Positions 2,864 through 60,600 of a stretch of DNA of 64,000 bases are shown piece by piece. The DNA is taken from NCBI GenBank assembly GCA_951406725.2, contig OX597818.1, positions 103,974,001 through 104,038,000 on the forward strand. The letters run 5' to 3'. The notes under the pieces are model-generated. The model saw only the letters and a program-made list of their open reading frames with translations. It searched no databases and had not been told where the DNA came from. The position numbers were made by a program, and so were the translations under genes. Position 1 is the stretch's first letter. Each line of letters starts with the position of its first letter. The DNA comes from Octopus vulgaris (lineage: Eukaryota).

Positions 2864-3015
2864 ATCCTACAAACTTAAAGTCGAAGAACATTATGCTCAT
2901 AAGTCAATCAAAAATACACTGTTGCAAATTCTATGCAATAATAACGTCAACAGATCTTATTAGCATTTATTTGTTAATAATATATATCAGGAATCTTCAT
3001 TGGTGTGTTTTTTTT

Positions 3016-3450
3016 TATTTACAATTGGCTGATATTTGTCCTCGTCTTGCTTGTTGTTAACACAACGTTTCGGCAGATATACACTTCAGCATTCATTAGG
3101 TGTTTTGGGGAAATTTCGAACCGGGATTCTCATTCGTAAAGTATTTTTCGATGTTCTTCTTCTTCTTATTATTATTATGGTCACTTCCTGGAATCGAGCT
3201 TAAAATCTTGGGGTTAGTAGCTCGTGCACTTAACCACTACGCCATATGCCTGTGGGTAATTATAGAGTGAGTTTTAGAGATTATAAATCTAGGAGTGGCT
3301 GTGTGGTAAGTAGCTTGCTAACCAACCACATGGTTCCGGGTTCAATCCCACTGCGTGGCATCTTGGGCAAGTGTCTTCTGCTATAGCCCCGGGCCGACCA
3401 ATGCCTTGTGAGTGGATTTGGTAGACGGAAACTGAAAGAAGCCTGTCGTA

Positions 3451-3482
<32 letters not shown>

Positions 3483-3837
3483 CGTATGTGTGTGTGTTTG
3501 TGTGTCTGTGTTTGTTCCCCTAGCATTGCTTGACAACTGATGCTGGTGTGTTTACGTCCCCGTCACTTAGCGGTTCGGCAAAAAGAGGCCGATAGAATAA
3601 GTACTGGGCTTACAAAAAGAATAAGTCCCGGGGTCGAGTTGCTCGACTAAAGGCGGTGCTCCAGCATGGCCGCAGCCAAATGACTGAAACAAGTAAAAGA
3701 GTAAAAGAGTAATGCTTCCTTAATACCGGTTCCTGTATGCTACTCATATCTACACTGGGATTGCTTAGGAGGTTGTTGTGTCCTAGTATTTGTGCTGCTT
3801 CTTTTAGTTTTCGTATTTTCCAGAGGTGTTCTCTGTC
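3016..3837 (-). mobile_element. Penelope-like element 3' end: GIY-YIG C-terminus, tRNA-like segment and hammerhead-bearing pLTR (split by the S1 SINE at 3291-3710)
   Basis: Minus-strand 3837-3712 translates DREHLWKIRKLKEAAQILGHNNLLSNPSVDMSSIQEPVLRK, typical of the end of PLE GIY-YIG domains. Beyond the SINE come the tRNA-like head (about 3250-3179) and a hammerhead-like motif (3104-3059), homologous to the arms at 5199 and 13563. Confidence 0.75.
3291..3710 (+). mobile_element. SINE family S1, inserted into the PLE 3' region
   Basis: Full copy from AGGAGTGGCTGTGTGGTAAG to (GTAAAAGA)n, homologous to 1696. Confidence 0.85.
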
Positions 3838-4165
3838 TTCAAATTCCGCCGAGATCGACTTTGCCTTTCATCATTTCACGGTCGATGTAATCGACTTAAT
3901 CCCTTTCTCTCTCCTTGTTCGCCCACTCTATGTTTAGCCCCTTATGGGCAATAAAGAAATAAACGTTAACACGCTGTGCGAAATGCTTAGCGGTATTTCG
4001 TCTGTGTTTACGTTCTGAGTTCATATTCAAATTCCTCCGAGGGTGACTATGCCTTTCATCCTTTCGGAGTCAATAAATTAAGTACAAGTTGCGTACCCGG
4101 ATCGACCTAATCGACCTGGCCCCTCCCTAAAAATCTCGGGCCTTGTACCTAGAGTAGAAAAGAAT
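3838..4165 (+). mobile_element. Dimeric SINE family S2, 5'-truncated
   Basis: TTCAAATTCCGCCGAG.TCGACTTTGCCTTTCATC occurs twice. The 3' end GGGCCTTGTACCTAGAGTAGAAAAGAA matches 29711-30110. Confidence 0.8.
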
Positions 4166-5286
4166 ATTTTGACATTTTAATAATTGCAATGCGTCATCTA
4201 TTTTGAGAAGGAAAATGGTGTTGCTCTACGATGAAAGCAACTGCATTCCAGTCTGTAGAATGTGATATAGATTACAATAATCCAGTATAAATTCATACCT
4301 AAAATTTGTCGGGCTCATTCTCGGCTGAAAGCCAGTCACCTTCCAGGCTGCCATAACGACTCCATTCCTTCGCTCGCTAATAAATCCATCGTTTGATAGT
4401 CCATGATCAACTTTCAAACAAAAAGGTTTAAGCCATGGCTACCAGTTCCAAGATTATTTCGATAATATGATTTTGCAATACCTGAGACATTGCAGAAATT
4501 ACGGAAATTACTCTAGAAATTGTTCAGTATAATTCCCCTAGAAAGGCACTTTTGAAGAGAAAATGATTAATCAACTTTCCAGAGAGAAGTGACGCCATCG
4601 ACTAATTCGTAGCTGTTGAAGATATTCATAGATATACTACAGGGTTTAGAAAAAGAAAAATACTCCAGAATAGTGTTTAAACTATTAGCATATATTTGTT
4701 TCTTCCTAATCAAATATTACTGTTCTCTGTGCCGTTCGAGTGATTAGTTATAATCAATGATCCAGAAGGCATTCTGAAGAGATCAGATCATAGAGCTTTT
4801 ATTATGCAAGCAATCGAAAATAGACGAGAATGATAAAAGCCGTACCGTAGATATTTTTCACAGAACTTAGCGTATATGTCATAGACAAATTACTAAGCAA
4901 GTGTACAAGAATGCACATTCATTCACTATCAGATCAATCTCAAATACGGGTGGAAAAATTACGCCAGGCTTTTCAATATCAATTTTTAATAGAGAAAATT
5001 ATCAACGCCTTCAAAACTTATAAGGAATGTATATTCAATCGACATTGGAAAACAACTGGAAATCAATGAGCAATAAGATTTGTTTTCTTGTAGTATATAC
5101 GCAAGATATGTTTCGGTTTTATACTGGCCCCATCAAATATGTGTAACTAATTCTCACTATTGTTCACTATTGTAAATACGCAAATACTAATTTATGTACA
5201 GTTCTATATTTAAGAGATGAGGAATTATGTACATTATTTACATTATTTACAATTGCCGGAAATTTGTCCTCAACTTGTTTGTTGTT

Positions 5287-5332
5287 AACACAACCTTTGG
5301 ACTGATATATCCTCCCGCCTTCATCAGGTGTC
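5287..5332 (-). ncRNA. Minimal type I hammerhead ribozyme motif (GAAA half mutated)
   Basis: Minus strand: GACAC CTGATGA A GGCGG GAGGATATAT CAGTC CAAA GG TT GTGTT. Confidence 0.6.
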
Positions 5333-5418
5333 TTGGGGAGATTTCGAACATGGGTTCGCATTTCTAAGGTACTTTTCGATGTTGTTGTTGTTATTATTAT
5401 TATTATCATCATTATTCA

Positions 5419-5490
5419 GGTCACTGCCTGGAATCGAATTTGGAATCTTGAGTTAGTAGCCCGCGCTCTTAACCCCTACGCCAAATGACC
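5419..5490 (-). ncRNA. tRNA-like Pol III head inside the PLE-derived unit (not a functional tRNA gene)
   Basis: 72 nt long. 7-bp acceptor-like stem GGTCATT/AGTGACC, A box TGGCGTAG(G/T)GG, B-box-like TTCGATTCC and loop CT-ACT-AA. Homologues at about 3179-3250 and 13761-13833. Confidence 0.7.
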
Positions 5491-5510
5491 GTGGTTTACC
5501 CAGGCAGTTA

Positions 5511-5586
<76 letters not shown>

Positions 5587-5794
5587 AAGAAGAAGAAGAA
5601 GAAGAAGAAGAAGAAGAAGAAGAAGAAGGAGAAGAAGAAGGAAGAAGGAAGAAGAAGAAGAAGAAGAAGAAGAAGAAGAAGAAGAAGAAGAAGAAGAAGA
5701 AGAAGAAGAAGAAGAAGAAGAAGAAGAAGAAGAAGAAGAAGATCAACAACAACATCAAAAATACCTTAGGAACCGATGTTCGAAATTTCCCCAA

Positions 5795-5840
5795 CACACC
5801 TGATGAAGGCTGGAAGGTATATCAGCCGAAGCCTTGTGTT
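5795..5840 (+). ncRNA. Minimal type I hammerhead ribozyme motif (GAAAC mutated to GAAGC)
   Basis: CACAC CTGATGA A GGCTG GAAGGTATAT CAGCC GAAG CC TT GTGTT, with a perfect 5-bp stem II GGCTG/CAGCC. Confidence 0.65.
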
Positions 5841-8199
5841 AACAACAAACAAGATGAGGACAAACATCAGTCAAATGTAAATACAGTAAATAATATACTA
5901 ATTTATGTAGTTTGATATGTCTATCGAACGAAATAAGCGATTATAAAGATGTGGGTTCGACTGCCTGGTAGCGTATATTTCAAAGCTTATTGAGAGCGTA
6001 CTTTACTAGCACTTTGATACTGTTGGTCCGTAGAGTGTCGCAACGGAGGAGAAGAAAATTCGAAACAATTCATCTCTCTTGATGTACTGTACAAAGACAA
6101 GATTATCATTGCTGCTCCAATGACGCTATACACATAATGAAGTGGCCAAAACTAACGGTATGTTTTCATATGTTATATTGATTTATCGAATTTACACCGC
6201 CACTAGAAAACTTGTGGTTATAGGTAGTGAAATGAAACGAATATTTATTTCATGGTGCCGTGAATTTCTGATGCGCTTTGAATTCAAGAAAGAAAGTATT
6301 TCACCTCAATTACGCACTAAAGTTTAACTTGAAACTCATGGAAGCAATCACTCAATATATTCTCGGGTCTTTGTTCCTTGTCTGAAAATAACGGTATTCA
6401 TTTATCTCATACCAATGTACCAAATTAATTTCTATTTCCTTACTAAGTAAATGTATGCATCACTGGGCGAATAACACGATTCGTTTACATTTGGACTATA
6501 CCATGCTATATTTATAGTAAAGTTTCAGCTAAGCAATAAAAGTGAAAGACAGTATAACATTTACTTTAAATATAGGACTGAGTTAACTTTTCTTTGCTTC
6601 CCATTAAATATTGCAGCATGTGGAACATGGGTATTTCAGAAAACTGAGCGATGAACACTCTCAGCATTGATAACAAATTGCAAACAAACTAATTTTCAGC
6701 CAAAAATTTCATCTCTTGGCAAGACCCATTTTTCTTTATTTTGTGGATTATATTTCGTTACCCGAATATGTATTCGGGATTGAAACACATGAATTTCACG
6801 TCATGTAGTATAACTGCTATCATAACTTCAATTAGGCTACATGAACCAGTTTTACACGTGGGGATATTGGATATAAACCTTAGTTTAGTAACAGAAAAGT
6901 AACGTATATTGCTACTTTTAAACTTTCCCCGGTTTCATTAGAAACTTATGTGTCTAAGTTTCTAAGAAAAATCATCCCAAGTAATCTTGATTAGCCACGG
7001 GCATACCAAGAAGAGGAATATTTCAGGGTGTCACGCTCTCCCCGGGCTTCGATATTCACCTTGTAATTTGTTGACCTTATTTATACCGATTGTTAAGCAT
7101 TTCCATGGAAAGTCAGTTATAAGTGAATGGGACTCATGATTTTAAGAGATGCAGTAGATATTTGTGCGGAGAGAAACAACGTCTTAGTTGGTCAGACGTA
7201 ATGTTCTGTTTCCATTAAGGATTTTTATTTAATCAAATATCCACGTTTGAACACCCAGCCCTGCTGTGTAGTATTACATTCCAGCTGAACAGCCTACGAA
7301 GGGATAGGCTCAGCTAAGTTGGCTTCGCATGGCATGCTACATTGAAACGAAGGCCTTGGTGGCGCTCCAATGATCCATTACGAGTTGTAGGGAGCTAGCC
7401 CATATTCCTTGTAATCTGAAACGGGTAGTTCAAGAGGAATATTTGTTTCTCTTTTTTTTCAAATTTTTTATGGAAATTTCATATTAATAAAATGAAAGTT
7501 TTTTCTTCCTCTTCTTCTTCATGAAAGGCACTGGGGACTGAAGAGAAAGTATTTAATTGAAATTTTATCTGAATGGGAAATCAATTAAAATTCGGATTTG
7601 CATTTTAAGGGTTCCTTCTCAATGAATGTCGATTGAAGTCAGAATTTTAATTTCACAGTTTGAAATATTATTTTTTTCCAATCGAATATTTAATCAAAAT
7701 AATGTTATACAAAACAAACTGAAGGTTATAAGCTGCCAAGCCAAAGTTGATTTAAACGATATGGATAGTAAATACGAGAAAAGAAATAAAATATAAGACG
7801 GGAGAAAATATATAAAAGACCTATCATCCAGCCAAAATCGAAAATATGACATCTGAAAGGTAAAATATATAAACATACATCATCCGAAAATTTGAAATGA
7901 AGATAAGTACATATTATCTAACACATTGTCAACGTTGGCCCAACACGCACGTAACTATTCTAATTTGGCATGAATCACTGTCAAGATAATGGCAATAAAA
8001 TTTAAGTAGATGAGTATGCAAATAAATCAGTGAATAAATAAATAAACAATTACATAAAGAAATAAACAAACAAACAAATAAATAGAGATAATTCTCTGTG
8101 TAAAAGAATTAGCTGAAGTACTCGGCAAATTTGGAGAATCCCAGCGAATAGAATACAGGCGTGAGACGAAAGTATGACATATTTCTAACAAGTAAGTAA

Positions 8200-13395: not shown

Positions 13396-13630
13396 TGATA
13401 ATCTCCCATGTTATCAAATTTTGCTTTAAATTCACTGCGTGGTCATATCCATAGAATCGTTATTTTGGCCTTTGTCCGATTTGAAGGAAATTTGCTCCCT
13501 ATATCTTTTCCAAAAGAGACAGACAGTTTAGACATTGGGAGTCCGGAGAATAACTAATAAAACAGTTCTATATTTAAGAGATGAGGAATTATGTACATTA
13601 TTTATATTTGACCTCATCTTGTTTATTATT

Positions 13631-13675
13631 AACACAACGTTTCGGCTGAAATACCCCCTGCCTTCATCGGGTGTC
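13631..13675 (-). ncRNA. Minimal hammerhead motif (core CCGATGA)
   Basis: Minus strand: GACAC CCGATGA A GGC AGGGGGTATTTCA GCC GAAA CG TT GTGTT. Confidence 0.65.
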
Positions 13676-13900
13676 TTGGAGAAATTTTGAACCTGGGTTC
13701 TTATTCCTGAGGTATATTTGATGTTGTTGTTGTTGTTGTTGTTGTTATTATTATTATTAATGTCACTACCTGGAATCGAATACGGAATCTTGGGGTCAGT
13801 AGCCCGGACTCTTAACCACTACGCCATATGTCCAAGATTCCAAGTGCGATTCCAGGCAGTGACCTTAATAATAATAATAATAATTATAATAATAATAATG

Positions 13901-13932
<32 letters not shown>

Positions 13933-13933
<1 letters not shown>

Positions 13934-14889
13934 TATTGAAAGAAAAACCTCTCTATGGCAAATACCCAAAGAGAGCGAATAATGCAGATGTTAACAAAGC
14001 CCTGGCCCATCAATGGCTAATGGCCTCTGGCTTAAAATCTGAAACAGAAGGGTTTATCATAGCAGCTCAAGATCAATGCCTACCAATAAGGAACTACCAG
14101 GCCAACATATTAAAGAACGGCAGTAGCCCAACATGTGTATGTCAAGAACAAAATGAAACCATTGATCATGTTGTCTCCAAGTGCAGTCTTCTAGCGCCTA
14201 CAGAGTATCTCAACAGGCATGATAGAGCTGCACAATATATCCACTGGGTAATCTGCAAAAACCTGGATTTGCCTCATGAAAAAACCTGGTGGGAACACAA
14301 ACCACCTCCAGTGCTTGAAAATGACCACATCTCACTCCTCTGGAACTTCCTCATTCAAACTGACAGAAAGATAGATGCAAATGGGCCAGACATCATATTG
14401 AAAGACTTCAAACAAAGAACATGCCTCCTCATTGATATGATTGCCCCAATCGATATAAACGTATCTGTCAAGACTTACCAAAAACTGAGCAAATATAAAG
14501 ATCTTGAAATAGAAATCAGCAAAATGTGGAACCTGAAGACTAAAACAATACCTGTTGTCACAGGTGCCCTGGGAATGATAGCAAAAGGGGCTGATCGCTA
14601 CCTAACTCTGATACCAGGAAACACCAAAATGGCAGAAATTCAAAAGATAGTGCTCATGGGAACTGCTCATATCCTACGCAAAATACTTTCTATGTAATCG
14701 CAAGTTTTAAAACAAACATAATTTTCGTGTGGTTTTTTAGGCATTCACTAGTACAACACTAAATACAAAACCAAATATATGGCACACTAGGCATAACAAC
14801 ATCACGAACTTTCAACCTGTTGTCTCTTGAGGTCTCTGGGTGAGACTTGGAGCCAACTTGTACAAATATAAAGCAAAAGTCAAACATAG
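13933..14889 (+). mobile_element. 5'-truncated R4/Dong-like element (CCHC, RLE endonuclease, 3' UTR)
   Basis: The frame is open to 14697: ETEGFIIAAQDQ, C-VC..ETIDHVVSKC, RHD, PDIILKD, KLSKYKDL, GTAHILRKIL. (AAT)n lies on both sides. Confidence 0.9.
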
Positions 14890-14916
14890 AATAATAATAA
14901 TAATGATAATAATAAC

Positions 14917-15464
<548 letters not shown>

Positions 15465-15512
15465 ATCAAAAAATACCGTAGGAATGAGAACCCAGGTTCA
15501 AAATTTCCCTAA

Positions 15513-15558
15513 GACACCTGATGAAGGCTGGAGGGTGTATCAGCCAAAACATTGTGTT
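15513..15558 (+). ncRNA. Minimal hammerhead motif (two CpG-type transitions)
   Basis: GACAC CTGATGA A GGCTG GAGGGTGTAT CAGCC AAAA CA TT GTGTT. Confidence 0.6.
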
Positions 15559-15981
15559 AACAATAAAGAAGATGAGGAGAAATATCCGTCAACTATAAAT
15601 AATGTCAATAATATAACTAATAAAATTTTTAATTAGTTTCTGAGCGTGAAGTCGATACCAAAAGTATGTCGATGTCTGCAAGGTAGAAAGACTCTCCCGG
15701 TAGAATAGACTGAAATGATATTTCAAAGAGAAAGATTAAGTATAGTGTGATTAGCGTGGGTCTTAAGGGATGCAGAGGTGTGGGGGGCATGATAGGAAGT
15801 CTACTTAAGGAAATGGTTGAGGTGTGGCACATGTGATGTACAACTACTTCCTTGTGGAGGAAACAAAAGGGAGCGTTCTGGTCTTTATAAATATGACAGA
15901 GTGTTTACATTGTTGTAGTATAAATCGTACGATCGGGGTTTCATTCTCGTATGCCTTCATTGGTTTTCAGCTATTTATGTA

Positions 15982-21617: not shown

Positions 21618-21816
21618 TATACATGCAACTGTTTATGCATACACGTACACATTTTAATTATAGAGCATAAATAATGCTTACACGCGCTCACACGTACACA
21701 CAGAAAGAAAAACCACGTTACGCGGACGAAAACAAAACAAAAACAAAGTGATTTTTCACGAATAAACGCAAAAAAGAGCAAATTGGTCACTGAATTTAGA
21801 ACGTCACTGAATAGTT

Positions 21817-24800
21817 ATGCCCGGAAACATGTCTACCAAAAGAAATAGAGGCGAATTTCGATCTGTAAGTCTTGCGGTGTCTTGTCAAAAAGTTGACCCT
21901 GTACAAACAGTCTCTTCTTCTAACGTCACCGTCACAGAAGCGGCGTCTTGTCAAAAAGTTGACTCTGAAAAAATGGACCGCTCTGATGTCGCTGTCAATC
22001 ATTTAATGAAAACAAGCCAAAAATCATGCCGTATCGGTCATCGCCCGGGACAACAAGGACTGCGTTACCCAGTAGGGAACCAGACTGGGTTCGAAAAGTT
22101 TGCTGCTGGAACAAACTCTCAAAAAGACGATCTACCAGGTGACCAGAACCAGAATACTTCTAACTCTGGACTTGTAGTGACACCACCAAAATCACCACCT
22201 AAAGCAAAACGTATAAAATGGACCAGAGAGGACTATGGAGATGTGTTGAAAGCTTTTTATACAGCCCAACTAAACCCAAACAATAACCTCAGTGTACAAA
22301 CATACATCTCATGGAGAAATTCAGTAGGCAATGAAGTACGTAGATATATAGACGCAAATAAATTAAGTAATGTACGCAGAGATATAATTAAAAATAAAAG
22401 ACTAACTGACGCTGAAATTGACCAAATTAGGACACTAATAGTTCATGGTATACCAAAAGAAAACGGCAACGTTGTAGAAGAAATAGGCAACAGTAGCACA
22501 GAAGCCAGTGTACAAGCGGTAAATCAACTTCCCAATGGGGAAGTTAAACAAAGAATAGCGAAGACGGGAGATTTGAAAAAAGAGGAGAACGTAGACCTTC
22601 CTCAAGAAAACCAAAATAGAATTTGAGGTGAATAATAGAGAAAAGATTATGGAAGCAAAAGTGGACATTATGAGAGAACTCGGCAAGATTGAGCTCACTG
22701 ACATGGTTAATAGAGAACCGCTACGAAAGTTTTCAAACAGCACAAGAAATAACAACACAATCATGACATATAACGTTGCCCTAGGACAGATCTTAAGAAA
22801 TAAGGGGAATGATCTAACAACCTTAGATAATCTCATCTATTCCACTGCTAAAGTAGTAACTACCCAACTAGGTATTAAGATGACAAAGAAAAAGGCCAGG
22901 CATGTCAATGAACCTCCTAAGTGGAAAGTAGCGATACAAAAAGAGATTGAATCTCTACGGGCGGATGTTTCAGTTCTCGATGAGCTTGCTAGAGGAGTGA
23001 ATATTAAGTCGCGAAAAGCTAGAAAAATCATGCAAAAATATAAAATCAAAGATCTCATAAACCTCCCTATAACTAAGGAATTGTTGAAACAACGGATACA
23101 GTTGAAAGCTCATCGGCTTAGAAGGTATGACAAAAGAAACAAATTTTAACGACAAAATAATTTTTTTAAGATAGATGCAAAGAAATTTTACAAGGAAATT
23201 GGCAAAAATAAAATACACATAGAAGATCCACCTAAGATTGATGAAGTGGAGGCGTTCTGAAAGAAGGTATGGAGCAACGAAAAAGAGTTTAATGCTGAGG
23301 CTGACTGGATAGAACGTGAGAAAGAGAGACTGGATGAACTTGAAGAACAGAAATGGGAAGCAATAGGAATAGAGGAGCTAAGCTGTGTCCTTAAGAAGGC
23401 TCATAAATGGAAAACTCCAGGACTGGATCGGATCCCTAACTTCTGGCTGAATTGTTTGACAGAGGTACACGAAAATCTCGCTGCATCTCTGTCTGATGTC
23501 ATTCAGAACCCAGAGCAAATACCTGCTTGGCTGACTGAAGGAACCACCTACCTATTACCTAAAACCGAAGACGCAAAAAACCCAAAGAATTACCATCCAA
23601 TAACATGTCTCAACACCACCTACAAAATCCTCACATCCATAATAACGGAGAGAATGTACGCTTTCCTTGTACAAAATTATATCCTTCCACAAGCTCAAAA
23701 AGGTTGTAAAAGAAACTCTTATGGGTGCAAAGACCAATTGCTCATAAACAGAATGATTGTAGAGAATTACCGGAGAAAAAACAAAAACCTAAGTATGGCA
23801 TGGATAGACTACAGGAAAGCGTATGACAGTGTTCCACATAAATGGATACTCAAGGCCCTTGAGATATACAAGATCCCTCCTGTCGTCTCAAAATTCTTAC
23901 AGAATAGCATGACCATGTGGAACACACGTCTCTTCCTAAGCCATAGTAATGGGATGAGCCAGTCCAACAGCATCAACATCAAACGAGGCATCTTTCAAGG
24001 TGACTCCCTCTCTCCATTACTTTTTTGCATGGCACTGATCCCACTCTCAAAGGAATTGGATAGTACCAGATATGGGTACAAAGTTTTTAGTAAGTCAATA
24101 AACCACCTTTTCTATATGGACGACCTAAACTGTTTGCCAGGAATGACCAAGAGCTAGAAGGGCTGCTAACAACTGTTAATGAGTTTAGCAATGATATCGG
24201 AATGGATTTTGGCCTTTATAAGCGTGCTAAAGCAACTTTTGTAAGAGGCAAGCTCAGGCAAACAGCTTCTGTTAAATTAGATATTGACACTACCATCAAG
24301 GAACTTGACCCACAAGAAAGTTACAAATACCTAGGAATCAACGAAGGAGATGGTATATATCATGTTACTATGAAGGAAAAAATAAGAAAGGAATACTATA
24401 GGAGAATAAGGCTTGTACTGAAGACTGAACTCAACTCCAAAAATTGCATTGAGGCCATTAACACCCTGGCACTTCCAGTAGTCCAGTACAGTTTTAACAT
24501 CATTGACTGGAACCTTATGGAACTCCAACGCTTGGACAGGAAGACAAGAAAATTACTGACATCCAAGAATATGCACCACCCTAAGGCAGATGTAGACCGC
24601 CTGTACCTACCTAGAAGCAGCCAGGGGAGAGGAATGATGCAATTAGAGCTGTGCTATAAGACCTCTACTGTAGGAATGAACAGGTACCTATCTAGTACAA
24701 AGGACTGGATGCTGCGACTTGTGTGCGAACACGAAAGCAGCAAAAAGTTGCATTCTATTGTCAAGGAAGCTTATAATTTCGAAAGGGAACTAGACATTAA

Positions 24801-25815
24801 CCTTGAATCAGATAAAGAGCCGGAAACCACTGCTACCAAGCAAGCAAAGCGAATCAAGCAGACTGCAAAAAAGAACGGGCAGAATCAAATTGAGAGGCGG
24901 TGGAGCCAGAAGCCCTTGCATGGACAATATATTCTCCGAAGCCAAAATGCTGATGTAGACCAAGCAACAACCCATCAGTGACTGAAGAGTTCTGGATTGA
25001 AAGCAGAGGCTGAAGGCTTCATACTGGCAGCACAAGATCAAAGCTTGTTTACCAGAAATTACCAGGCTAACGTTCTCCGAAACGGTACTGACCCTAAATG
25101 CAGATTCTGCGACACATTTGACGAAACAATTGACCATCTCGTTTCGGGATGTCCTGTGCTGACACCAAACGAATACAAAAATCGCCACGATAGGGTAGGA
25201 CAGTATATACATTGGAAGATATGTAAACACTACAAATTCGGCACTCCTGCTAACTGGTATGAACACCATCCTCAGCCAGTTGTTGAAGGTAAAAATGTCA
25301 CCATCCTCTGGGATCTTCCAGTCAACACTGACAGAATGATCAAGGTTAATCGACCAGACATAATTGTTAAAGACAGGGAAGAAAATACCTGCAGACTAAT
25401 AGAGGTAAGCGTCCCCACTGATAAAAATATATCTGTAAAGGAATTTGACAAACTTAGTAAATATAAGGACCTGGAAATCGAAATACAAAAGATGTTGAAT
25501 CTTAAAACAAAAACTGTTCCTGTTATTGTAAGTGCCCTAGGTATGATAAAAAAGGGATGTCAGAAACACCTAGACAATATCCCTGGAGAACCATGTCTCA
25601 AGGAAATCCAAAAGATTGTGCTAACAAGTACTGCCCACATCTTTAGAAAACCCTATCAATGTAAATGTTTCTGTTTGTATTACATGGAGATATTTCTCTG
25701 CTTCCCCTCTCCAAGCTTTCAGCTATATTTCAACAACTCTTAACCTTCACTTGCCGTAGGGCGCTGGGTGTGCCCCGGCAAGTGATTGCATCAAACATGC
25801 AGATTAAAAGTAAAT
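21817..25815 (+). mobile_element. Near-full-length R4/Dong-clade non-LTR retrotransposon (RT, CCHC, RLE), inactivated
   Basis: One ancestral ORF. N-terminal RIKWTRED..FY and LSNVRRDIIKNKRLTDAEI; RT motifs KTPGLDRIPNFW, NYHPITCL, QKGC..GCKDQL, WIDYRKAYDSVPH, GIFQGDSLSPLLF and HLFYMDD; CRFC..ETIDHLVSGC, RHD, RPDII and KLSKYKDL. The 3' end runs into AAT-type repeats. Stops or frameshifts at about 22624, 23147, 23258, 24130, 24979 and 25650. The 5' boundary is unknown. Confidence 0.92.
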
Positions 25816-32949: not shown

Positions 32950-33026
32950 TAATTGGCTGATGGGCACTTAACATCTTAAATCTGTTGTAATAAAATGATG
33001 TAGTGCGAAACAATTGTACCAAATTA
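32950..33026 (+). ncRNA. Type I hammerhead-like motif (core CTGATGG) in a block between TA tracts (32813-33056)
   Basis: TAATTGG CTGATGG GCACT.AACATC-loop-GATGT AGTGC GAAA CAATTG TA CCAAATTA. Stems I and II pair, and stem III is the palindrome ACAATTGT. Confidence 0.65.
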
Positions 33027-33083
33027 CCGGAGTCATTCTTGCTGCTTATTTTGATTATATATATATGTATATATATATATATA

Positions 33084-35487
33084 TTTTCAGTTGAAAAAAC
33101 TCTCCTCTCAGACCACGACATGGTACTCTGCAATTTTAATTCCCGACATATAAAAACCAAACCAGCCAATCCCACTCCATGGCACTCATTTGACAACATA
33201 AACTTCCCCAAAGCGGACTGGGGAGCAATCAGAAAGGATCTGTCTTTCATTGACTGGTCTTTTACTCTCAATTCCACCCATATTGAGACCGCATGGCAGC
33301 ACTTTGAAAGCATTGTCACCTATACATGCTCTAAACGCGCTCCCACGAAATCTACTAACACAAACAGAAACCGGCTCCCTAAAAAGAAAAAAACACTCAT
33401 CAGGCGCATCAAAAGACTCAACAAAAAAAAGCAACCAATTAAAATATTCCCACATACAACATCCACATTCAACAACAAGGAAAAGGCTAGAGCTGGAAAA
33501 ACCTCATCTGCAGACCGACATGAAAACCTCCATTGAAAATCAAAGAGCTGTGGAGGGACAGTGGGTAATCAAAAACATCAAACAGAACCCAAAAGTGTTC
33601 TATTCTTATGCAAATAAGCATAAAACCACTGTCCCACCCATTGGGCCATTGATAGATGATAACGGCATTCCCCAACACGATGCTAAAGAAATGGCAGAAA
33701 TACTGCAGAAACAATACTGATCTGTCTTTAGTGTTCCCACTGATATTGGCGTAAGAGAAGCGAACGAAGTTGACTCCCAACATAAAATCTCAGACATAAC
33801 CTTCACTGCCACTGACATCATAGCAGCAATAGATGAGGTCAAATACTACTCTGCTGTAGGCCCTGACAGATTCCCCGCTAGTCTCCTGAAGGAATGTAGA
33901 CTCCAACTTGCAGTCCCTCTGACCAACTTCTGGAGAAATTCGGTAGACGCAGGTTATATACCGAAACAGTTCATATCCCAGTCAGTCATCCCGGTTTTCA
34001 AACAGGGAAACAGATCCCTCGCACTCAACTATCGCCCAATCTCACTCACCTCCCACATCATTAAAGTGTTTGAAAGAGTGTTAAGATCAAGGATAGCTGA
34101 CTTCCTGGAGATCCACAAACTCCTAACTGCAAATCAGCATGACTTTCGCTGTGGCAGGGACTGTCTAACGCAGCTCTTACACCACATTGAAGATGTACTC
34201 AAACCCTTGGGAACAGGTTCGAACTCTGATGTCATATATCTTGACTTCAGTAAAGCGTTCGACGGGGTAGACCATAATATCCTACTCTCAAAATTGGCAA
34301 ATGTTGGAATCCATGGAAAAGTTCTACACTGGATTAAGTATTTCCTAGCGAATAGAACATAACATGTAGTTGATGGAGTTCACTCAAGCCCAGCAAAATT
34401 CACCGGCGGTGTCCCCCAGGGGACTGTCTTGGGTCCGCTACTCTTCATAATTTACATAAACGACATTTCCAGTGTCGTACATTACTGCAAAGTGAAAATA
34501 TTTGCTGATGACACTAAGCTCCAGCAAATCGTCAATGAAGAAGCGGATCGAACTCAACTCCAGTCTGATCTATATGTTGTGAGTCAATGGGCAGACAGAA
34601 ACAAAATGCAACTGAACGAGGGAAAATTTGAGCTGATGCATTTTGGAAGAAATTCCTCATTAAAACAGCCATACTCTCTTCCTTCAGGGGAACCGCTCAC
34701 AGCCTCTAACAATATCAGAGACCTGGGTGTAATTGTTGATGACGATCTCAGTTGGAGTGCACACATCAACAAGAAGGTCGATATAGCTCGTAGGATGAGT
34801 TCCTGGATCTTAAGAACTTTCCGGTCCAGAGAACAAGGTATCATCATACCACTTTTCTCCTCCTTTGTACGACCACACCTCGAATACTGCTGTCCACTGT
34901 GGTCTCCCCATACAAGGCAAAACATCTCGAGGATCGAATCACCCCAGAGGCACTCACTAAACGAATTGAAGGCATGGCTGCTCTCGATTATTGGGATCGC
35001 CTTAAAGCCTTGAAACTCTACTCTCTCCAGCGTCGCCGTGAGCGGTACATCATTTGTACGATGTGGAGAATATACCGCTAACTTTGCCCAACCGACCTGA
35101 ACATTAGCTTCAAGGTTCATCCACGACTGGGACCACGGGCCATACGTCCCCTGCACAATTCAAGATCACAGCATACATGTATACTGCAACATAATTTCTT
35201 TTCCTCAACAGGCCCTGTCCTATTTAACATTGTCCCGAGGGAGATCAAAGAGGAAAAGGATCCCATCAACTTTAAACGGAGTCTGGACAGATTCTTTCAG
35301 GGAATACCAGATAAGCCACCCATAATAGGGTACAACTCACCCAACAAAAACTCATTACTTGAATGGACCATAAACAAAACTTCACTTAAACAGGATTCAA
35401 ATAATCCTATCAGGTGGTGCTATTAAGTTAGACATGGCCTGGACCAATCTTTGGTCGAAATATATCTGAGTTTTATCTAAGTTTTAT
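33084..35487 (+). mobile_element. 5'-truncated CR1-clade LINE (APE C-terminus and RT), inactivated
   Basis: SDHDMV, NPKVFYSY, AVGPDRFP, NYRPISLTSHIIKVFE, YLDFSKAFD, GVPQGTVLGPLLFIIYIND, FADDTK, RDLGV and VRPHLEYCCPLWSP. 3' tandem tail ATCTGAGTTTT/ATCTAAGTTTT. Several stops and frameshifts. Confidence 0.9.
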
Positions 35488-58866: not shown

Positions 58867-60600
58867 TTAAGTAAAAATGTCCTTGTTCTGTATTTTACCA
58901 GATATATCTTGTCCTTGATATATGTTGGTCTTGTACCACGTGTTTACATTGTTTGCTTTTTCACAAACCCTTTGTATTCTATTCAAGTCTTTGCTTCTAT
59001 ATTTAGGGCAGGTGCCACTGGTTTCATTACATATGATGTTATCTAACTTCTTTCTAGCACCCCTGTATACCCGAACCCTATCTTTCTGATCATATTCAGG
59101 GGACACGTTATTCATTATCTTAAGTAAATCTGTTATCAGTATGTTGATTTTCACGCTGTGTGACAAAGCTGGGTTCTTGTGAACAACATATTTCGAAGCT
59201 ATGGGTTGCATGTAATAGGAGTGGAGGTGCTGTACTGTGTTTTTCACAATCTCTAACCAAAGTTCAGTATCAAGGGCGGGGAGTCTATTGGTGGGGTGCC
59301 TAGTGGGGGTAAACTATAGTTACCTTGATATTTTGGTGGATGGAGTTGGCTACATGCTGGAACTCTCAATTATGTTTCTCTCGGTTTCTACGTTACTGTT
59401 ATTAGATTTGTCTTTTACTAGAATATTAACGTCGTTTACATACCTATAGTAAGGATTGTTTAAGTTTTCTCTCCCACCAAGTCATGAAAAATCCGTCCAC
59501 ATCTCCGGCTACACCAACACCAATGGCGGCACCTTGAACCTGCATGCATAGTTTCTTGTTAAAATTTATTATGTGGTTCTTCAAAGTAGTTCCTGAGCTA
59601 GCACCTATTACATGTGCAATCATTCCTTTCACCTGATTGTTGTTCTCGGGGTCTTGGGTGAATATGGACCAGCCACTCCAGCGCTCTGCGGTGCTTCTCT
59701 TCACTGCTGAGATGATGGCAGGTGATCATATTCCTTGTAATCTGGTGGGATAGAATCCACTATGGTCATGGTTGTCTAAATAGTTACCCTCACAGCTCGG
59801 TTTAAAGAGGAACCCCAGTTACCGCCGCGTGTTGACTTCACTGAATTTTACTTCACGCTCACAGATAATCTCAATGCATTTTTCCACAGCACAACCTCTG
59901 TCTATACATGGATAGAGTGAAACTAAATCCATACTACACATTGCACAATCTGTGAGGTCGTTGGAGTGACTGCAACTACGGATTCTACTGAAGAAACCCT
60001 CCGTGCTCGCACAGACATCTAAGGACATTTCAGTAAGAGGTCGTAATAGTTGTGTGAGGAAGTAGGATAGTCTATAATTTCTGGAGATATTCGCTCCGCA
60101 ACTGGTCGGGTTGGGGCCGCATAAGGGATTCATGTAGGGTTTATGGTCTTTACGTAACATATATAGCCTAGGATTATAATTGTCGCATGCTTGGAAATTG
60201 CGTGCAGTCTGTTTCTTGGGTTGGTATATGTTGCACCACATTCCCATATTTACATTAAGGAGATTTTCTTCTCTGTCATGTTCCTGTGGTGCAACTTTCC
60301 TCATACTACTGATGAGGTTTTGCATGGTTTGGGCATAGTTCTGCTAGACTTGCATGTAGGGTGTCCCACTAATTCCTTGTTCCTATATTCTTGTTTCGGT
60401 TTTCGTAGGCATTTGGCAACTGATGAGCCGAGTTTGTGAGTCCCCTCATTATGTTTTTTGTGGTTTTGTTGTACCGGTCTAAGATATTCCTATTTAAGGA
60501 GATCTTTGCTTCTGTTTCACTGTCAATCTGAGGTGAGATACACATCCTTAAGTTAAAGAGTACGTCTGTGGGGTAGATCGTCGTCAATTCATATGATTTG
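58867..60600 (-). mobile_element. Decayed Penelope-like reverse transcriptase
   Basis: YMLRKDHK, CGANISRN..LS, SMDLVSLYPCID, QVQGAAIG..FMTWW, RYVND (59431-59445), RLPALDTELW and HSYYMQPIAS..ALS. Confidence 0.8.

Follow-up and report, generated by a model that had tools for sequence, protein, structure and literature searches.

Penelope-like elements (PLEs) of the Penelope/Poseidon type, such as Penelope of Drosophila virilis, Poseidon_Ac of Anolis and Pen2 of Adineta, have one open reading frame (ORF), encoding a reverse transcriptase (RT) and then a GIY-YIG-type endonuclease, and pseudo-long terminal repeats (pLTRs). Their ORF is described as starting within the pLTR and overlapping a hammerhead ribozyme, and their insertions as having a 30-40 nt tail at one end, an inverted 5' arm, a short target-site duplication (TSD) and a 5' palindrome (PMC11167929, PMC3846280, PMC8557442). 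The minimal hammerheads of metazoan PLEs have an extra base between positions 9 and 10.1, a G10.1-C11.1 pair, a palindromic 15.2-16.2 without a loop and a 5-bp helix I, and pairs of them 100-700 bp apart on opposite strands have been noted (Cervera and de la Pena 2014, PMC4209133). Here we analyse a fold-back insertion at 5184..5909 of a 64,000-nt stretch of the Octopus vulgaris genome (contig OX597818.1, positions 103,974,001 to 104,038,000; hereafter the window). The family to which it belongs resembles these PLEs in coding order, ORF start, tail, inverted arm, TSD and palindrome, and judged by its sequence its hammerhead appears to differ in no material way from the metazoan PLE type. Inverted arms, a one-sided tail and this hammerhead type are already published for Penelope elements. 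The unusual part is a tRNA-derived head with intact A and B boxes within the pLTR; unlike in described PLEs, this head is accompanied by an (AAT)n tract, and the 5' ends of copies pile up there. The best explanation overall, to which we give a probability of about 0.6, is that the insertion is a head-to-head pLTR pair of a Penelope/Poseidon-type element with a tRNA-derived RNA polymerase III (Pol III) promoter.

The nearest analogue of a tRNA head in a pLTR is the TRIMp3 group (Cassandra, Helenus and Ajax), in which a small-RNA-derived Pol III promoter lies in a retrotransposon terminal repeat. These are non-autonomous long terminal repeat elements, whose autonomous partners are argued to need RNA polymerase II (Pol II), whereas the octopus head lies in the repeat of a coding element from a different retrotransposon order (Kojima 2024, PMC10886601). 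The promoter of D. virilis Penelope is described as internal to the pLTR and similar to that of long interspersed elements (LINEs) (PMC2377424). Short interspersed elements (SINEs) derived from tRNA also show a tRNA head, short dispersed copies and TSDs; unlike in them, the 3' part of the octopus unit encodes the beginning of the ORF of the autonomous element to which it belongs, and a lineage apart from that element was not seen. Schistosoma Sm-alpha, which we take to be a SINE-like repeat with a hammerhead, can also be likened to the octopus unit. The octopus SINE OR2 is a CORE SINE (PMC4758252), likened here by description alone. The literature searched gave no account of a tRNA-derived head in a PLE pLTR; Repbase, Dfam and SINEBase lay outside the comparison, and the sequence may be catalogued. 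The available portion of an octopus repeat annotation (PMC13282606) makes no mention of a hammerhead.

The insertion is a 696-bp unit (5199-5894) between perfect 15-bp direct repeats (100% match), which form the left (5184-5198) and right (5895-5909) TSDs. A preliminary description of this locus, made from the sequence, had given the same coordinates, with two head-to-head arms and an extra terminal segment in the left one. We reproduce all three points: over 129 nt the inverted arms (5229-5357 and 5770-5898) show 84% complementarity, and the segment, a tail of 34 nt, is confined to the left arm. Read on the minus strand, the left arm opens with a complete tRNA-like head, which is followed by a short (AAT/AAC)n tract, by the body with its hammerhead and by the tail. 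Its 5' end is at -4, as four bases of the element's upstream spacer (5491..5494) precede the tRNA-derived head (5416..5490; A box 5483-5473, B box 5439-5430). The B box has its first base changed in this copy, and direct reading gives a G-to-A change. Then follow the tract (5383..5415), the pLTR body (5233..5382) and the Penelope tail (5199..5232), which is coding in full-length copies. An ORF start codon lies at 5361-5359, and the frame, read directly, is open up to the end of the tail. The minimal type I hammerhead of this arm (5287..5332, minus strand) is changed at G12 and C15.2, with a damaged stem II. Five bases unlike the majority of either arm, again read directly, make up the junction (5495..5499). 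The right arm, on the plus strand, is 5'-truncated and starts with the final 15 nt of the head (5500..5514), a remnant without A box or B box. A long tract of expanded (AAT)n and then (GAA)n (5515..5751) leads to a tail-less pLTR body (5752..5894), whose minimal hammerhead (5795..5840) is changed at A15.1 and G16.2. Because both hammerheads and the one B box are mutated, this copy is dead, and as a single insertion it is ordinary Penelope debris.

It is nearly certain that the unit is the pLTR of an autonomous element of the Penelope/Poseidon type. The full element reads pLTR, ORF (RT, then GIY-YIG-type endonuclease), pLTR, and each pLTR is composed of head, (AAT)n, hammerhead and tail. Upstream, some heads are continuous with further shared sequence, whose translation gives an RT thumb and a GIY-YIG-type endonuclease. 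A protein search with the RT thumb returned 9429 candidates, from which 150 were scored and 30 loci fetched; the head stood about 27 nt past the ORF stop in 20 of these, two had the body without a head, and eight had neither. Among 30 loci picked by the head, at least part of the body followed downstream in 28. Heads without a body were met at 4 of 30 loci, two of them broken by LINE fragments and one retaining the first body bases, and inspection found no shared alternative body behind the four. In full-length copies (L232+L116 and L259), the reading frame continues from body and tail into the ORF; the start codon is upstream of the hammerhead, and hammerhead plus tail make up the first ~54 codons. 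L116 has a private deletion of ~51 nt in this N-terminal coding part, and the segment is present in most other copies compared. The peptide of body and tail aligns (E 5e-9) with the N-terminus of P0003, a full-length relative of 847 aa, which shows 55% identity over the RT-endonuclease part. A natural frame of 569 aa matches RVT_1 with E 2.7e-6, which falls slightly short of the Pfam cut-off. It has many homologues, the named ones mostly animal, with relatives at 55-68% identity; the homologues carry PF00078, and PF01541 is found in 3 of 120 among the matches listed. The GIY-YIG and CCHH-like residues of the endonuclease part were seen by eye. The Penelope/Poseidon clade label is probable, resting on the domain order and on a reading by eye that showed no Neptune zinc finger.

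The head is likely to act as an internal Pol III promoter at the opening of the pLTR. Among 20 host tRNA loci that were sampled, covering 8 anticodon types, tRNA-Arg(TCG) is the best match of the majority head, with 46 identities over 73 and an alignment score of 60.5, against a mean of 20 and a maximum of 39.5 in 500 shuffles. The tRNA-like head of the preliminary description is thus tRNA-derived, with a score above every shuffle, and its majority fits the A-box and B-box patterns. Its stems are broken, with 2/7 acceptor, 3/5 T and 3/5 anticodon pairs, against 7/7, 5/5 and 5/5 in a control tRNA-Arg(TCT). The 5' ends of copies fall at the start of this head. In our least biased set, the first 30 matches of a mid-head 22-mer, 23 arms end at -7..+5, four inside the head and three upstream; six raw alignment ends at -10..-19 were reassigned, since inverted head or unrelated bases, and no spacer, stand there. 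When 89 arms are pooled, a sample biased towards intact heads, 57 stop near +1, 24 stop within the head and 8 run on (9 counting the deletion-bearing L190), and none ends between -8 and -25. Exact motif counts genome-wide fall threefold, from 2931 and 2733 within the head to 932 just upstream, a ratio that is rough because the motifs differ in conservation. Many copies snap back at a palindrome around +1 and carry an inverted head without spacer, which suggests that the cDNA exhausted its template at about -5 to -7. The preliminary description had set ordinary pLTR debris, that is, copies truncated at random lengths from an autonomous PLE, against its own reading. Only half of this applies: the autonomous origin holds, but the 5' ends are strongly non-random.

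We further propose, tentatively and as somewhat less probable than not, that the coding element captured a tRNA-derived promoter in its pLTR and was transcribed from end to end by Pol III (~2.9 kb, no TTTT), in which case one uncapped RNA would be both the mRNA and the template for full elements and for tens of thousands of SINE-like solo repeats. The majority sequence of the ORF contains no TTTT over 2415 nt, where 2.9 would be expected (P=0.023 from a synonymous shuffle, P=0.019 when the rate in other PLEs of the same genome is used); this majority contains one frameshift artefact in its thinly covered part. An independent 5' majority from 12 further loci also lacks the motif. In individual copies TTTT is scattered, 15 times in 48.8 kb and at most twice at any one place, and most other PLE and LINE ORFs in the same genome have 1-4 per kb.

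The family is large. A body 22-mer has 9663 exact matches in the 2.8-Gb genome and is exact in 23 of 73 copies chosen by other means, from which we estimate ~30,000 arms, about 5% diverged at non-CpG sites; 20 random 10-kb stretches held one arm, about half the number predicted from this estimate. Tabulated over 63 fold-backs at the fetched loci, as the preliminary description had proposed, the geometry proves to be beyond chance. The tail is on one arm only in 55, on neither in 6 and on both in 2, a TSD of 9-17 bp bounds 36 (0-2 in each of eight mismatched-flank controls), and either arm can be the longer. The 3' ends are bimodal, at ~141-151 and 175-181, which are the two ends of the tail. 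At loci picked by the ORF 5' region, a set biased by its query, 6 of 13 (L258, L260, L262, L264, L266 and L267) end 149-212 backbone positions past the tail, hinting at a further priming or template-switch region. In one of them, at L260:942-1917, position -6 is the exact start of an inverted arm and also of a tandem pLTR downstream.

These features can be combined in a model in which the RNA would start ~6 nt ahead of the tRNA-like +1, and 13 nt ahead of the A box, and would meet no TTTT terminator. By analogy with the biochemistry of the Anolis PLE, the element's protein would nick AT-rich DNA on its two strands, at sites ~9-17 bp from each other, and reverse transcription may begin inside the RNA at two sites ~30 nt apart, corresponding to the tail ends; therefore the tail would be present in one of the cDNAs and absent from the other. 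If priming takes place at the tail close to the RNA 5' end, solo pLTRs of ~290 bp that reach the RNA start would result, and priming at the 3' tail would give ORF-bearing copies, mostly truncated, such that short and long copies could come from one transcript. The two cDNAs would then join head to head, often via a short snap-back at the palindrome around +1, leaving a fold-back with its TSD.

Several observations weigh against a Pol III start. Positions -39..-32 hold a TATA-like motif, and no 30-nt hairpin in the last ~1 kb is stronger than the one straddling +1 (-17..+12), so that Pol II initiation or an RT stop could yield the same pile-up. Identity to tRNA-Arg(TCG) is 17/23 inside the boxes, not clearly above 29/49 outside them. 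The source tRNA was not found: a tRNA-Arg(ACG) gene pattern gave no match, and the Arg assignment thus rests on the 20 sampled loci. The TTTT deficit is modest, and since one of ten control segments is equally depleted (P=0.0085) it is support and not proof. Without a cap, an RNA of 2.9 kb would have to be translated by an unusual route. Cap-independent initiation linked to ribozymes has been reported in viruses and in some retrotransposons (PMC13725137), but the predicted cut in the octopus element would fall past the start codon. In three RNA-seq runs of one study (~6% of each, from a species possibly other than the window's), thousands of reads match the family. First-mate counts are equal on both strands, starts and ends do not pile up, and depth parallels that of a DNA run. 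Transcript starts were not seen. The pattern is what read-through of dispersed copies would give in an unstranded library, and it is neutral on a short Pol III RNA. A search of sequencing runs with a stretch of the family gave no RNA run among the matches listed, and the stretch is present under five organism labels. The head could be a passenger that stems from the insertion of an old tRNA-SINE, ending in (AAT)n, into the 3' untranslated region of the same Penelope, whose pLTR would then owe its 5' ends to Pol II working from the TATA-like motif ~30 nt ahead of the inferred start, or to an RT stop or snap-back at the +1 palindrome. Rotifer Penelopes are indeed reported to have palindromes at the 5' ends of their pLTRs and inverted junctions (PMC3846280), and the hairpin, the many snap-back copies and the RNA depth that tracks DNA all speak for such a passenger. 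However, the missing spacer in the snap-backs and the empty interval from -8 to -25 fit the end of a template better than a stall, a hairpin of like strength within the head (-9.4 vs -10.8 kcal/mol) causes no pile-up, and intact boxes among broken stems, together with the absent TTTT, would go unexplained. We regard the passenger origin as the less likely reading, though it is the strongest competitor of the Pol III promoter.

The preliminary description had seen in the unit a separate non-coding SINE or retrozyme family mobilised by a Penelope enzyme. The mobilisation is borne out; the separate family is not, as the unit is part of a coding element. Solo pLTRs might still serve as their own source genes, a Pol III SINE lineage borrowing the Penelope enzyme, considering that they outnumber ORF-linked units ~3-8 to 1 and retain both boxes. 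This we consider improbable: 104 solo and 26 ORF-linked arms share one majority sequence without a diagnostic allele, their non-CpG divergence is similar (4.8% vs 5.7%, the solo set being biased low by its selection), and the common length variant of the body, a frame-preserving 9-nt duplication, occurs in both. Less probable still is a non-LTR retrozyme, in which tandem hammerheads would process the transcript into circular RNA. The octopus family does share with non-LTR retrozymes a type I hammerhead and a relationship to pLTRs (PMC7229834), and animal retrozymes have been linked to pLTRs (bioRxiv 10.64898/2026.07.22.740005). The five hammerhead-bearing bodies in the window each have at least one core change, as previously noted (besides the two described above: G5; U4; G12 and G16.2), and the family majority restores the intact core of a minimal type I hammerhead, all 11 core bases being intact in 47 of 103 copies. 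Searches with Rfam and ARAGORN recognised no head and no hammerhead and returned only simple-repeat noise, so the proposed covariance-model check brought no match. Minimum-energy folding gave no catalytic fold of monomer or dimer, with a minimum of -13.6 kcal/mol against -12.2 for stems I and II alone, a result that says nothing either way. The predicted hammerhead would cut 3' of the start codon, and probably only as a dimer or with the help of a protein. Unlike retrozymes, the family showed no tandem array among the copies compared: all 16 close pairs (<5 kb) among the first 100 of the 9663 body matches are head-to-head and none is tandem. Copies end at tail and head, away from the predicted cut site, and the two ribozymes of one fold-back lie on opposite strands. 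A circle junction, or tail-to-head joint, was absent among the joints listed from the three RNA-seq runs, with 62 further joints outside that listing and a library ill-suited to the question.

Pol III promoters mark non-autonomous retroelements. If the Pol III promoter reading is true, a Penelope with its own tRNA-derived promoter would blur the division between SINEs and LINEs, and SINE-like repeats would have one route by which to arise directly from a coding element. Whichever polymerase is used, the ~30,000 insertion junctions of the family, with their sharply defined template start, pair of priming sites and TSDs, amount to a large natural test set for how PLE fold-backs form, a step left open by in vitro work. 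Such repeats are also liable to be mislabelled as SINEs.

Other elements occur nearby and elsewhere. A second fold-back of the same pLTR family lies at 13563-15615 of the window, and its right (AAT)n tract holds a LINE 3' fragment (~13935-14895) and another tRNA-like SINE (~14985-15323). The tract is often invaded by such LINEs (L005, L008, L020, L027, L189 and L193), which from the look of the protein we take to be R4/Dong-like. At 3015-3838 (minus strand), a later insertion splits a pLTR copy in which the upstream spacer and the 3' end of the ORF are retained. At 58867-60343 (minus strand) lies a PLE-like RT that is decayed, belongs to a further family and shares 60-67% identity with other copies in the genome; this RT and its young 1312-aa relative were considered as the partner of the pLTR and rejected, with pLTR matches in 0 of 30 loci. 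A different, apparently young PLE-like family with intact ORFs of 1310-1312 aa is found at L051:2763-6701, L052, L054 and L059. These ORFs gave no Pfam match and no match to the octopus tRNA-headed pLTR, and the family has dozens of matches at equal score. Two broken LINEs with RVT_1 domains lie at 21811-25743 and 32994-35013 of the window.
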